64,000 bases of DNA from Escherichia coli (GTDB lineage: Bacteria; Pseudomonadota; Gammaproteobacteria; Enterobacterales; Enterobacteriaceae): assembly GCF_045037415.1 (NCBI RefSeq), contig NZ_CP173438.1. The stretch is one strand, 5' to 3'. A model generated the notes under the pieces. It worked only from the letters and a program-made list of their open reading frames with translations. It did not search any database and was not told the DNA's origin. Position numbers and translations under genes: made by a program. This document shows, piece after piece, positions 56,516 through 64,000 of the stretch (the stretch's first letter is position 1; the number at the start of each line of letters is the position of its first letter).

Positions 56516-59062
56516 TCAAGAAAAATACTGCTGCAACAGCGGCGCGTCATGCTCCTGATTGGCAGGTGGCATGTTACCGATAGATTTGGTGCGAAACGGA
56601 ATCACCTGTTCACGACCATCAACCTTCACAATCTGATAGAACTGCGGCAGGTTGAAGTTGATGAAGCTTGAGCCGTAGGTGAAACGGTCGTGCGAAGACG
56701 AGTAGAAGCGACTGACGTCACGCACCAGTTCCTCTTTGCTGCCTTCGCAGTGGTGATACACCTCAACCCGGTTGCTTTCGTCGAGAATGTAGATATTAAA
56801 GCCATTCTCGTCTTGCGTTTCTTCGAAGAAGAACTGGATGATCCCTTCGCTGGCAAAGCCGTCCACCACCGCCGGTAATTTGACGTGATTGGTTTCAACC
56901 TGCACTGACAGGCCGTGCAGTTTGTTATGCGAAATAGCGCCATAAAACTCGATGGCGTTTTCCAGTTTCTGTACCGATACATTCAGCCGTTCGAAGAACA
57001 AGCCCCAGGTTTGACCGGAGACGCGCAGCGCCTTGAAGCGCCCGGTTTCCTGGCGGGTGCTGGAAAGACGCAGTTCAATACACTCAGAAACCAGTTGCTG
57101 CACGCGAGTACGGATTAACCCGCGCAGATGCTGGCTATAACAGAAGACTTCCACGCTATCTGGCGGTGCGGCGTCCTGATGCATTTTGCCGAGAATAGTT
57201 TTCAGGGCTTCGATCATCGATTGCTCGCCGTTGAAGTGCAGCGTACGCACTTCGTTCCACGAGTTGCGATACAGCAGGTCAACGCTACCCACCAGGCAAT
57301 TTTGATTCTCGCCAAAGCTGAAGACATCCAGCTTACGGAAATCAAAATGCACCACCTGATTGCGGAAGGCTGCCGTCGGGTCATATTCCAGGTTAACGAT
57401 AATCGCCAGATGGCGGATCTCACACGGGCTGTAGAGCGCCTTCGGTGTCGGTGCAGGTAAGCGCAGCGGGAAATGGTGCGACACGTCTGCGACCATCTCC
57501 TGCAACTTAGGCAAATCGACAATGCCGTTACCTTTAATATACAAACGGGTGCGAGAGGTCAGCAGGCCGTTAAACCATGCCCACGCCACCAGTTTATTCA
57601 GGTAGCGATTATATTCCAGCGGCTGATGGCTGATGATTGACTCAATATTTGGCGCGCGGTTATACAGATACCAACCTGAACGGTTGGCGCGGCCCGGCGG
57701 TACATAAATAAAGGTCAGATTCGGTTCCGAGAGATCGGGCGAAATCTGCGGGTTTACCAGCGTCACTTTACCCGGTAATGCTTCAAACGCGGCGTACAGT
57801 TTACGTGTCAGCACGCCGATATCCTGCGGGCTGGCGGAGACGCTAAGGTTATTGCGGCGCGCAAAGCGGATCAGATTACGGTAGCTCTGCATCATTGCGT
57901 CGAGCAGCTCGTTGTGCGCCTCACGCACCTGATCTATCTTCCAGTTAGCGCGGTTATCGAGCATTGCCAGACGAGCTTCGTCCCAACCCCACTCGCTCAC
58001 TAACTGGCTCAACACTGCGCGACGCCAGCCTACACAGGCGCGTTCACGGCTGAGCTTTTCGCACACTTTTAAATAGAAGCAGCGACGCACTAAATCCAGA
58101 CGGGTGAAATCTTCAATCGCCGTCAGGTATTCAGTAACACGCTCCAGCATCATGCAGTACGGGTCGAGGCCAAACGATACAATCTCGCCGTCGTGCAAAC
58201 GCTGTTTGATATCTTTCGCCAGCAGACGTGGGTTCGGGTATTCCCAGGAATAGGCTTCCAGCAGCAGTGTTTTCAGCACCGCTTTGTATGGGGAATCGAT
58301 ACTCTTGTAGAGCTGCCAAAGGCTGGCACCAAAGTACTCTTCAGCAGAAAGCGAGCTTAAGCCACCAAGATCCAGCCATTCATTTGGCGTCAGCACGCCC
58401 TGCGCGTAAAGCGTCATCACATAGTCGTCGTAATGCTCTTCTTCGTCGCACGGCACCATATTCCACAGAATACGCTTACCGGCGAGACGCACGGCGGTAC
58501 GATAAAATTCGTCAAGCAGCAGTATATGCTGGGTGGAGCCACAATCTTCGCCCCCCAGGCTGCCGCTTTCATTATGACGGAAGCGGTTTTCATCAATCAG
58601 GAAGAAGCTGACTTCCACACCCAGCGAGGCGGCCCAGCTTTCCAGCAGACTACATTTACGTTGTAGCAACTGGCGCTCTTCGCTATCGAGCCAGGATTGA
58701 TGACAGACCCAGATATCCAGGTCAGAGGAACAACTTTGCCCTACGGACGAGGTGCTGCCCATGGTGTATACACCAGTAATTGGAAGCTCACCTTTCGGTG
58801 GGTCCTGTACTGACATTCCACGATACAGTTCAAGCTCGTTCAGGTAGTGGCGTTGAGTTTCATCAGGCGTGTAAAGGCAAATGCCTTTGGGAACGTTACC
58901 ATCAAGGTAACCCGGCATTAGCGGATGGTGATAGTGCAACAATGTCGGCAGTAGACTGTAGACCTGTTGGAATGCAGGCCCCATAGCAGCAAGCGCGCGA
59001 TCCACACGCAATTGATTTATGGCATCCAGTCTCTGTTTCAGAGTCTCAATATAGAGGTACAA
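56516..59062 (-). CDS. cyaA: Adenylate cyclase (class I)
   Basis: 848 aa, matches CyaA; non-ATG (TTG) start as in K-12. Confidence 0.95.
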
Positions 59063-61148: not shown

Positions 61149-62354
61149 ATGACGGAACAAGAAAAAACCTCCGCCGTGGTTGAAGAGACCAGGGAGGCCG
61201 TGGACACCACGTCACAACCTGTCGCAACAGAAAAAAAGAGTAAGAACAATACCGCATTGATTCTCAGCGCGGTGGCTATCGCTATTGCTCTGGCGGCGGG
61301 CGTCGGTTTGTATGGCTGGGGTAAACAACAGGCCGTCAATCAGACTGCCACCAGCGATGCCCTGGCTAACCAACTTACGGCACTGCAAAAAGCCCAGGAG
61401 AGCCAAAAAGCCGAGCTGGAAGGCATTATCAAGCAACAAGCTGTACAGCTTGAGCAGGCGAATCGTCAGCAAGAAACGCTGGCAAAACAGCTGGATGAAG
61501 TCCAACAAAAGGTCGCCACCATTTCCGGCAGCGATGCTAAAACCTGGCTGCTGGCCCAGGCCGATTTTCTGGTGAAACTCGCCGGACGGAAGCTGTGGAG
61601 CGATCAGGACGTCACGACCGCTGCAGCGTTGCTGAAAAGTGCAGACGCCAGCCTGGCGGATATGAATGACCCGAGTCTGATTACCGTTCGCCGGGCAATT
61701 ACCGATGATATCGCCAGCCTTTCTGCGGTATCGCAGGTGGATTATGACGGTATCATCCTTAAGCTTAATCAGCTTTCAAATCAGGTAGATAATCTGCGTC
61801 TGGCCGATAATGACAGCGATGGTTCGCCGATGGATTCCGACGGTGAAGAGCTTTCCAGTTCCATCAGCGAATGGCGTATCAATCTGCAAAAAAGCTGGCA
61901 GAATTTTATGGACAACTTCATTACGATTCGCCGTCGTGATGACACTGCCGTACCGCTGTTAGCGCCAAATCAGGATATCTATCTGCGCGAAAATATCCGC
62001 TCTCGCCTGCTGGTCGCAGCACAAGCTGTACCGCGTCACCAGGAAGAGACTTATCGCCAGGCGCTGGAGAACGTCTCCACCTGGGTACGTGCTTACTACG
62101 ATACTGATGATGCCACCACCAAAGCGTTCCTCGACGAGGTGGACCAGTTAAGCCAGCAAAATATCTCGATGGATCTTCCGGAAACCCTGCAAAGCCAGGC
62201 GATGCTGGAAAAATTGATGCAGACCCGCGTGCGTAACCTGCTGGCACAACCGGCAGCAGGGACAACGGAAGCTAAACCTGCACCTGCACCTGCACCTGCA
62301 CCTGCACCTGCACCGCAAGCTGATGCTCCGGCAGCCGCGCCGCAAGGAGAATAA
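61149..62354 (+). CDS. hemX: HemX-family membrane protein (putative uroporphyrinogen-III C-methyltransferase)
   Basis: 401 aa; N-terminal TM helix, coiled-coil, C-terminal Pro-Ala repeat. Confidence 0.85.
62277..62312 (+). repeat. Perfect hexanucleotide tandem repeat (cctgca)x6 inside hemX, encoding (Pro-Ala)6
   Basis: Read directly from the sequence: cctgcacctgcacctgcacctgcacctgcacctgca. Confidence 0.9.
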
Positions 62355-62356
62355 CC

Positions 62357-63553
62357 ATGCTAAAAGTGTTATTGCTCTTTGTGTTGCTGATTGCGGGGAT
62401 CGTGGTTGGCCCGATGATTGCCGGCCATCAGGGTTACGTGCTGATCCAGACCGACAACTACAATATTGAAACTAGCGTCACGGGCCTCGCGATTATTTTG
62501 ATTCTGGCGATGGTAGTGCTGTTTGCCATTGAGTGGCTACTGCGGCGAATCTTCCGCACAGGCGCGCACACCCGTGGGTGGTTTGTCGGACGTAAGCGTC
62601 GCCGTGCACGTAAGCAGACCGAACAGGCGCTGCTGAAACTGGCGGAAGGCGATTATCAGCAAGTTGAAAAGCTGATGGCGAAAAATGCCGATCACGCTGA
62701 ACAACCGGTGGTGAACTATCTACTGGCAGCCGAAGCCGCGCAACAACGTGGTGATGAAGCACGCGCCAACCAACATCTGGAACGCGCAGCGGAGCTGGCC
62801 GGCAATGACACCATTCCGGTAGAAATCACCCGTGTACGTCTGCAACTGGCCCGTAATGAAAACCATGCAGCACGTCACGGCGTTGATAAGCTGCTGGAAG
62901 TTACGCCACGCCATCCGGAAGTATTACGTCTGGCGGAACAGGCGTATATCCGCACAGGGGCATGGAGTTCGCTGCTGGATATCATCCCATCAATGGCGAA
63001 AGCCCATGTTGGTGATGAAGAACATCGTGCAATGCTGGAACAACAGGCATGGATTGGCCTGATGGATCAGGCGCGTGCCGATAACGGTAGCGAAGGTTTG
63101 CGTAACTGGTGGAAAAACCAAAGCCGGAAAACGCGTCATCAGGTGGCCTTGCAGGTGGCAATGGCGGAACATCTTATTGAGTGTGACGATCATGATACTG
63201 CCCAGCAAATTATCATCGACGGCCTGAAACGCCAGTATGACGATCGCCTGCTGCTGCCGATCCCGCGTCTGAAAACCAATAATCCGGAACAGCTGGAAAA
63301 AGTGCTGCGCCAACAGATCAAAAACGTGGGCGATCGCCCGCTGTTGTGGAGCACACTGGGTCAGTCGCTGATGAAACACGGAGAATGGCAGGAAGCATCG
63401 CTCGCCTTCCGCGCAGCGCTGAAACAACGTCCGGACGCCTACGATTACGCATGGCTTGCCGACGCGCTGGACAGACTGCACAAGCCGGAAGAAGCCGCAG
63501 CGATGCGTCGCGACGGTTTGATGCTAACGTTGCAAAACAACCCACCGCAGTAA
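62357..63553 (+). CDS. hemY: HemY-family TPR membrane protein
   Basis: 398 aa, 2 N-terminal TM helices + TPR-like repeats, matches HemY. Confidence 0.9.
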   Translation: MLKVLLLFVLLIAGIVVGPMIAGHQGYVLIQTDNYNIETSVTGLAIILILAMVVLFAIEWLLRRIFRTGAHTRGWFVGRKRRRARKQTEQALLKLAEGDYQQVEKLMAKNADHAEQPVVNYLLAAEAAQQRGDEARANQHLERAAELAGNDTIPVEITRVRLQLARNENHAARHGVDKLLEVTPRHPEVLRLAEQAYIRTGAWSSLLDIIPSMAKAHVGDEEHRAMLEQQAWIGLMDQARADNGSEGLRNWWKNQSRKTRHQVALQVAMAEHLIECDDHDTAQQIIIDGLKRQYDDRLLLPIPRLKTNNPEQLEKVLRQQIKNVGDRPLLWSTLGQSLMKHGEWQEASLAFRAALKQRPDAYDYAWLADALDRLHKPEEAAAMRRDGLMLTLQNNPPQ

Positions 63554-63555
63554 TC

Positions 63556-63588
63556 TATATCGCCTCGTTCAGGGGCGATATTTTTTTA
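63556..63588 (+). terminator. Rho-independent terminator of the hemCDXY operon
   Basis: atatcgcc-tcgttcagg-ggcgatat stem followed by 7 T. Confidence 0.6.
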
Positions 63589-63602
63589 CAAGGATGTCAA
63601 AC

Positions 63603-64000
63603 ATGCGCACACCGTCCCGCTATATTTTCCGCTTACCATCACATGAAATTAATCCTTTTCGGGCAACGCTCTTGCTGATTTTGTTGATATGTGCCGTTCT
63701 GGCTGGCGTAAGTTGGCTGATTCTGTCCTTCGTACGTACAGGCAATACATTCATCTTCTGGTTAACACTTTTTATTGGGTATCTGATAGCCATTGCGAAG
63801 CAGGAAAAAATCAAGCTCATCGAGAAGCGCCAGATTATGGCTGATAAACGTCAGGGACTTTCCATTTGTCAGTTCGCACGCCAATTTTCCCCCCACACCG
63901 TAGATACATGGGTGATTCGGGCTGTGTGGAATACCTTACAAGGAAACGGCTATATCGATTATCCATTACCACTGAAAGCCAGTGATAAACTGGACGATGA
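63603..64000 (+). CDS. Hypothetical membrane protein, 5' part only (ORF runs off the window end)
   Basis: ATG at 63603 opens a stop-free frame of at least 132 codons (MRTPSRYIFRLPSHEINPFRATLLLILLICAVLAGVSWLILSFV...), with two predicted TM helices then a charged soluble region. It is not in the ORF track because no stop is reached. Confidence 0.3.
   Translation, partial: MRTPSRYIFRLPSHEINPFRATLLLILLICAVLAGVSWLILSFVRTGNTFIFWLTLFIGYLIAIAKQEKIKLIEKRQIMADKRQGLSICQFARQFSPHTVDTWVIRAVWNTLQGNGYIDYPLPLKASDKLDD

Follow-up and report, generated by a model that had tools for sequence, protein, structure and literature searches.

A gene between hemY and glmZ in ST131-type Escherichia coli encodes a small membrane protein with a probable acyl-carrier-protein-like domain

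Results

A conserved gene at the end of the window

We have analysed the end of a 64,000-nucleotide stretch of Escherichia coli DNA (contig NZ_CP173438.1 of assembly GCF_045037415.1; the window hereafter), where an open reading frame (ORF) begins shortly after hemY, at the ATG of position 63603, and continues without a stop codon for 132 codons up to base 64000, the window edge. This frame is almost certainly the 5' two-thirds of a real, conserved gene lying between hemY and the convergent small RNA gene glmZ. Its product is a small inner-membrane protein that consists of an MRxPSR peptide, two transmembrane (TM) helices and a cytoplasmic four-helix domain, each of them either shown or predicted with good support. 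According to structure models and profile comparisons, this domain probably has the fold of an acyl carrier protein (ACP). As judged from the sequences of this locus in related genomes, the gene is probably ancestral at the hemY-glmZ position, and in most E. coli, K-12 included, a replacement of the spacer has probably removed it.

The cyaA / hemCDXY region forms the end of the window, and the hemY stop codon, a TAA, occupies 63551-63553. The ATG lies 49 nt past hemY and 15 nt past the T-run of a terminator-like hairpin, whose ten pairs (63557-63581) give a folding energy of -15.2 kcal/mol (z = -5.97 against shuffles). In front of the ATG, a purine-rich Shine-Dalgarno (SD) sequence is found with the same spacing in all orthologous loci examined (L001, L086, L006, L004, L087, and L090). 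The frame had been pointed out in a first-pass annotation made from the letters of the window, and on recomputation its coordinates, its spacing from the terminator, its stop-free length, and its two hydrophobic segments followed by a charged region were all accurate.

Several hundred complete E. coli chromosomes, among them those labelled O25b:H4 and O25b:H4-ST131, match the final 447 nt of the window at 100% identity. We have therefore been able to follow the frame past base 64000, as the first-pass annotation had advised. In NZ_CP032265.1 (locus L001), which is identical over the stretch, it ends after 196 codons with glmZ directly behind it, and RefSeq already lists it as the 'hypothetical protein' WP_001260226.1. 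That is, the ORF itself is not new, and its earlier description as unannotated has to be withdrawn.

The same annotation had argued that a long open frame in such AT-rich DNA is unlikely by chance, and the numbers bear this out. The G+C content of the visible part is 45.2%, against 54.7% for hemCDXY, and that of the whole gene is about 46%. Given the frame's own base composition, a stop-free run of 132 codons has a probability of about 8e-4, and one of 196 codons about 3e-5. The possibility that the frame is open only by chance, in a hemY-glmZ spacer that codes for nothing, would agree with the lack of any match to Pfam, NCBIfam, PADLOC or PHROGs models, with the lack of a consensus promoter, and with the 87% of E. 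coli genomes that do not have the gene. However, apart from the small probability of the 196-codon frame, there are 652 clusters of same-length homologues across phyla with family-invariant residues, a ratio of non-synonymous to synonymous substitution rate (dN/dS) of 0.22–0.27, a conserved SD sequence, and a confidently predicted fold. The chance ORF is thus excluded by the conservation data, and the frame is confirmed as a real membrane-protein gene.

Beyond the window, GlmZ is encoded on the minus strand at 9639-9845 of L001, where the Rfam model GlmZ_SraJ (RF00083) scores 217.5 bits against a gathering score of 60. The glmZ gene is convergent, with its 3' end directly next to the stop codon of our gene, and the same arrangement is found in L086, L006, and L004. 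The first-pass annotation could not see GlmZ in the spacer, simply because glmZ begins just past base 64000 on the opposite strand. It had also stated that the frame does not resemble a sulfatase such as aslA. Indeed, the protein has no match to Pfam Sulfatase in a Pfam scan, and aslA is a separate gene downstream that starts 630 bp past the stop codon.

As for the start codon, all Escherichia alleles have another in-frame ATG (63594-63596 in the window), 9 nt before the annotated one. We have rejected it as the start, because it overlaps with the SD sequence and because the N-terminus of the family is MRxPSR. In the second E. coli allele (L086 2550), a Leu codon rather than ATG stands at the conserved MRTPSR start.

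Frequency in E. coli and the K-12-type spacer

The gene is carried by 693–694 of the 5426 complete E. coli genomes (about 13%). In 588 of them it is at least 99% identical to the window, while 105 carry a second allele of about 88% identity at the same locus. One of the 693 locus matches is on a record labelled plasmid, perhaps because the replicon was mislabelled or misassembled. Conversely, a K-12-type short hemY-glmZ junction is present in 4725 genomes (about 87%).

In MG1655, only about 80 bp separate the hemY stop codon from the glmZ terminator. The two types of spacer have fully different hemY terminators, namely TATCGCC...GGCGATA followed by seven T's in the window, and CCCGGAGG...CCTCCGGG in K-12 (L002 2600-2690). 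After this different hairpin, similarity to the ST131-type sequence picks up only at CATAAAAAAACGCC. Judged by these junctions, the K-12 state looks like a replacement rather than a clean deletion. A sensitive blastn search has found no remnant of the gene in K-12-type genomes; where MAFFT partially aligns the K-12 spacer with the 3' end of the gene, the similarity looks accidental. The comparison with K-12 hemY-aslA that the first-pass annotation had called for thus shows that the gene is lacking in K-12, whose spacer is short and unrelated, and places glmZ. Neither of the outcomes that would have spoken against a gene applies: the K-12 spacer is not a version of the frame with stop codons introduced by small differences, and the full protein is conserved, with 652 clusters of homologues.

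An ancestral gene lost from most E. coli

The order hemY-gene-glmZ is conserved in other Escherichia and in further enterobacterial lineages, and this synteny speaks for an ancestral gene that has been lost, not for an insertion. In Escherichia sp. E1V33 (L006), of a cryptic Escherichia clade, the order is the same and the protein is 85% identical. In E. albertii, the same hemY-aslA locus holds a frameshifted pseudogene in pieces of 80 and 118 amino acids (L091 2766-3357 and L092 3001-3357), which is a case of independent decay of the gene. Three more enterobacterial lineages (L087, L004, and L090, from metagenome or read-archive assemblies) also show this order; their HemY proteins are 86–93% identical to E. 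coli HemY, their orthologues of our protein are 43–58% identical to it, and either the glmZ terminator or glmZ follows directly after the orthologue. The TATCGCC...GGCGATA stem after hemY is found again in L004 and L090, though without a good T-run there.

The rival explanation is a recent horizontal insertion specific to ST131-like lineages. It could account for the low G+C content (45.9%, compared with 55% for hemY), for the presence of the gene in only 13% of genomes, and for the two E. coli alleles, which are 87–88% identical and differ by a synonymous substitution rate (dS) of 0.33, while the flanking hemY shows 0.18. It would also be in line with the position of the family member in other Enterobacteriaceae, i.e., Kosakonia, Superficieibacter, and the metagenome-assembled genome UBA5654, where it lies between rlmC and artJ (L007, L008, L009, and L011). 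On the other hand, the shared gene order and related hairpin reach from cryptic Escherichia and E. albertii to the three lineages above. Moreover, between ST131 and E1V33 the dS of the gene (0.39) matches that of hemY (0.36). We have found no repeats, integrase or mobile-element genes near the locus, and no family member in the phage collection. Among plasmids, the only match is an 801-kb Pseudoalteromonas chromid, and none is on a mobilisable plasmid. Considering both sides, we regard a recent insertion as unlikely, and less likely than ancestral presence followed by loss. Still, re-import from other Escherichia by recombination keeps some plausibility in view of the low G+C content and the deep split of the alleles.

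As a separate observation, the family member of Kosakonia sp. S29 (L007 5001-8317) is accompanied by an ORF for a small secreted protein and an OmpR-type two-component pair.

A widespread family without a model

An exhaustive HMMER search has retrieved at least 652 clusters (at 50% identity) with E <= 1e-3, of which 304 reach E <= 1e-10. The homologues are nearly all 170–200 amino acids long and align end to end, and length and architecture are shared by 53 close clusters as well as by the 652 distant ones. In a scan of species-representative genomes, members occur in Gamma-, Beta-, Alpha-, and Epsilonproteobacteria, and also in Verrucomicrobia, Planctomycetes, Armatimonadetes, Lentisphaerae, and Balneolaceae.

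For the column counts and the structure model we have used an alignment of 84 diverse members. In this alignment R83, F91, D101, R106, and D128 are invariant, and I88, C89, R93, W103, P123, R153, G155, N164, P165, T171, Q182, and P183 are nearly so. The N-terminal motif is strongly conserved too, as the counts of its columns show (M61, R46/K11, P49, S66, and R61).

The E. coli protein was scanned against Pfam, NCBIfam, PADLOC, and PHROGs, and the 84 relatives against the same libraries except PHROGs. No model covers the family: there are sub-threshold matches only, mostly to the TM region. The best PADLOC match of the E. coli protein, for example, has an E-value of 0.004 and lies in the TM region, and only single members of the 84 match any model of that library. 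Likewise, in the library searched we have found no paper on WP_001260226.1, on its family, or on membrane ACP-like proteins without phosphopantetheine. We could not find described anywhere the picture at family level, that is, two TM helices joined to a serine-less ACP-like domain, an ancestral place between hemY and glmZ, and loss in K-12.

Protein architecture and the ACP-like domain

The features that fall into the window are listed in Table 1. The positive charge amounts to +3 at the N-terminus and +5 after the second TM helix, and the two helices are separated by a loop of five residues. By the positive-inside rule, both termini are predicted to face the cytoplasm. The basic stretch after the hydrophobic segments gives way to a strongly acidic one, with a net charge of -10 over residues 120–165.

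Table 1. Features of the gene and its 5' neighbourhood at the end of the window
Feature	Coordinates	Strand	Description	Basis
hemY	62357..63553	+	last annotated hemCDXY gene; upstream co-directional neighbour	ORF list and hemY annotation in identical genomes
Intrinsic-terminator-like hairpin after hemY	63557..63587	+	stem 63557-63566 / 63572-63581; seven T's ending at 63587	terminator scan
Shine-Dalgarno AAGGA	63590..63594	+	8 nt upstream of ATG	sequence
Codons 1-132 of the 196-codon gene	63603..64000	+	RefSeq WP_001260226.1, hypothetical protein	translation, homologues, dN/dS
N-terminal motif MRTPSR	63603..63620	+	predicted cytoplasmic; family consensus M-R/K-x-P-S-R-x-M-P	
TM helix 1 (residues 21-44)	63663..63734	+	hydropathy maximum 2.96	AlphaFold helix 18-46
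TM helix 2 (residues 50-65)	63750..63797	+	runs on as basic cytoplasmic helix to about residue 82	AlphaFold helix 49-82
Start of conserved cytoplasmic domain (from invariant R83)	63849..64000	+	only first helix and loop of the ACP-like fold in the window	

The AlphaFold2 model built from the 84 sequences has a mean predicted local distance difference test score (pLDDT) of 93.1 and a predicted template-modelling score (pTM) of 0.84. In this model, helices 18–46 and 49–82 form a TM hairpin that extends into a cytoplasmic helix, and are followed by helices 88–93, 102–114, 140–154, and 172–180. The ACP-like four-helix fold takes up about residues 98–183, so that its acidic helix II (residues 139–154) is encoded past base 64000.

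Several lines of evidence relate this domain to ACPs. The modelled domain has the compact four-helix fold of an ACP, in which helix II is the strongly acidic 'recognition' helix and helix IV resembles that of ACPs, and the top Foldseek matches are ACPs, though none of them is significant. In the comparison of the family profile with the Protein Data Bank, six ACP sequences appear at E-values of 0.08–0.7. Aligned to E. coli AcpP by hhalign, helix II and helix IV pair as expected, with an E-value of 0.005 but a probability of only 7%. In addition, 5 of the 84 members match NCBIfam ACP models at about 1e-3. Each of these lines is weak alone, but they agree with each other. Neither the E. coli protein nor any of its 84 relatives matches Pfam PP-binding.

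The site at which ACPs carry 4'-phosphopantetheine is not kept. In all these alignments Ser36 of AcpP, in the DSL motif, aligns to Ala140. Across the 84 members this column holds mostly other residues (P20, D17, E10, S10, G7, and A6), that is, the serine is not conserved. Helix II is even more acidic here than in ACPs; in the family, its mean net charge over 12 residues amounts to -5.5.

Genomic neighbours and expression

No conserved gene partner has emerged from an all-against-all clustering of the ORFs at 85 loci and from the comparison of the nearest upstream and downstream ORFs with Pfam. Since no neighbour is conserved, the gene is a chromosomal stand-alone unit, and its neighbours give no clue to its function. 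OmpR-type two-component pairs do occur at 11 loci (10 of Comamonadaceae-type betaproteobacteria and one of Kosakonia), but they reflect mostly lineage-specific synteny and are uninformative. At about 75 loci, genes for fatty-acid, polyketide or nonribosomal peptide synthetase (NRPS) pathways and for phosphopantetheinyl transferases do not recur as immediate neighbours.

A promoter scan from 300 nt upstream of the hemY stop codon to glmZ has found no sigma-70 consensus site. The stretch from the hemY terminator to the ATG is too short for a promoter, and the gene is therefore probably transcribed either by read-through from the hemCDXY genes upstream or from a promoter located in hemY. At its other end it has no terminator of its own. 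Its TAA stop codon falls into the run of A's that lies opposite the U-tract of the GlmZ terminator (L001 9630-9685), and on the strand of the gene only UUAAAAC comes after the glmZ hairpin, which is read backwards here. Transcription would have to stop at this reversed hairpin. With such an ending, however, read-through transcripts would be antisense to GlmZ, so that some antisense transcription into glmZ is conceivable from the arrangement of the two genes.

Discussion

Possible functions of the protein

We propose that the protein is not an acyl carrier, and that its ACP-like acidic surface may serve as a membrane-tethered protein-binding module. The partner, a cytoplasmic protein that may normally recognise ACP, would be docked or sequestered at the inner membrane, and the interface would include the conserved N-terminal peptide together with R83, F91, D101, R106, and D128. 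As a function, this is a conjecture that we hold only tentatively, and it may well be wrong. The explanation as a whole, i.e., a real and old gene for an ACP-like membrane protein that acts as a binding module and is transcribed by read-through, appears to us slightly better than an even bet. Several observations weigh against it. Between Escherichia alleles the dN/dS of 0.22–0.27, although indicative of purifying selection, is roughly 10-fold above that of hemY (0.01–0.04). The gene has repeatedly been lost or turned into a pseudogene, namely in K-12-type E. coli, in E. albertii, and as truncated variants, and is therefore dispensable. Furthermore, no promoter was found for it in the scan.

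The alternatives differ in how they read the same fold and the same locus. If the gene were an accessory fifth member of hemCDXY, working with the membrane proteins HemX and HemY in haem biogenesis, its direction, its start 49 nt after hemY, and the adjacency in at least four enterobacterial lineages would be expected; the hairpin without a good T-run in two lineages suggests co-transcription, and no promoter of its own was found. But none of the about 75 loci outside the Escherichia-like group has hemC, hemD, hemX or hemY within 5 kb. The gene follows rlmC instead in Kosakonia, Superficieibacter, and UBA5654, it is missing from 87% of E. coli genomes, and a strong terminator separates it from hemY in Escherichia. 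A role with HemX and HemY is possible only as a lineage-specific association, and we consider a haem function quite improbable. The probability is smaller still that the protein is a true carrier, with phosphopantetheine on a non-canonical serine (e.g., Ser87) or on a DS site kept by some members; this we consider very improbable. The fold is ACP-like, Ser87 is conserved in 66 of the 84 members, and 10 members have a serine at the canonical position; yet this position is mostly Pro, Asp or Glu, and Ala in our protein, the serine-bearing members read DS[DE][DE] rather than DSL, Ser87 is outside helix II, and genes for a phosphopantetheinyl transferase, a synthase or a ligase are not conserved in the neighbourhood.

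The patchy distribution, the varying location, and the small size with two TM helices could also belong to a membrane toxin, an immunity protein or a phage-defence effector of variable chromosomal spots. Three members match Pfam Cpta_toxin weakly, a PIN-domain neighbour is present at three loci, and SLATT and Mrr neighbours are found at one locus each. Against this, neither PADLOC nor PHROGs gives a significant match for any member, the gene has no recurring partner and is absent from the phage collection, and the Cpta_toxin matches are limited to the hydrophobic region and do not include our protein. Such a role has no positive support, and its chance lies between those of the haem role and of the true carrier.

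A bolder extension of the binding-module proposal can also be formulated. The family would then be an undescribed, widespread group of serine-less membrane ACP mimics that recruit an ACP-recognising enzyme or regulator to the inner membrane or sequester it there, the candidate partners including enzymes of lipid or lipid-A synthesis, SpoT, and MukB. In addition, the antisense run into glmZ in ST131-type strains would modulate the GlmY/GlmZ-glmS circuit in a way that K-12 does not. We take this combination to be unlikely, at about the level of the recent insertion.

Implications

By this gene, about 13% of all complete E. coli genomes, the pandemic lineages of the ST131 type among them, differ from K-12 at a locus that also encodes the cell-envelope regulator GlmZ. 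Maps of hemY-glmZ-aslA based on K-12 are therefore not applicable to the strains that bear the gene. Beyond E. coli, the sequence clusters of the family in Gram-negative bacteria number at least several hundred, and the libraries searched have no model for them. If the serine-less, membrane-anchored ACP fold proves true, a very well-studied fold would have found a new use here, and such a protein could point to an unrecognised regulator of an ACP-dependent process. The gene is dispensable, having been lost repeatedly, and its importance is modest for the present.

Other features of the region

Three further observations concern the neighbouring genes. In hemX (61149-62354), the window has a perfect (ACCTGC)x6.5 tandem repeat at 62276-62314, which encodes a Pro-Ala run near the C-terminus of HemX. 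HemX is 401 amino acids long in the window, 399 in AR_0089, and 407 in strain 142, and the number of repeats therefore appears to be variable. For the cyaA ORF on the minus strand (window 56516-59062), a TTG start codon is listed, and this unusual start is known for E. coli cyaA. Finally, between lptM and cyaY of the ST131-type genome (L001 1298-1483), RefSeq lists a truncated 'DKNYY family protein' pseudogene.

Comparison with known systems

In its overall layout, the protein is similar to CptA/YgfX (PF07254), which has a similar size and likewise a predicted TM hairpin with both termini inside. Three of the 84 members match PF07254 weakly (best E-value 2.7e-5), in the hydrophobic region only, while the E. 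coli protein itself has no match; CptA is without an ACP-like domain.

Compared with ACPs such as E. coli AcpP, several differences stand out. The phosphopantetheine serine of their DSL motif is not conserved here (Ala in our protein), and the same polypeptide carries, besides the domain, two TM helices and the N-terminal MRxPSR peptide. Additional Arg and Asp residues are invariant in the family, there is no association with genes of fatty-acid, polyketide or NRPS pathways, and the sequence similarity to ACPs stays under the significance thresholds of Pfam and NCBIfam.

The ACPs of membrane complexes, i.e., NDUFAB1/ACPM of mitochondrial complex I and those of Ycf2-FtsHi and MmpS5L5-AcpM, are among the best structural matches, of which those in Foldseek are not significant. 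In these complexes at the membrane, the ACP fold has a structural or regulatory part and does not act as a free carrier, which resembles the role proposed here. However, these ACPs are soluble, are recruited non-covalently, and keep the serine with its acyl-pantetheine as part of the interface, whereas our protein is predicted to be anchored by its own TM helices and lacks the serine.
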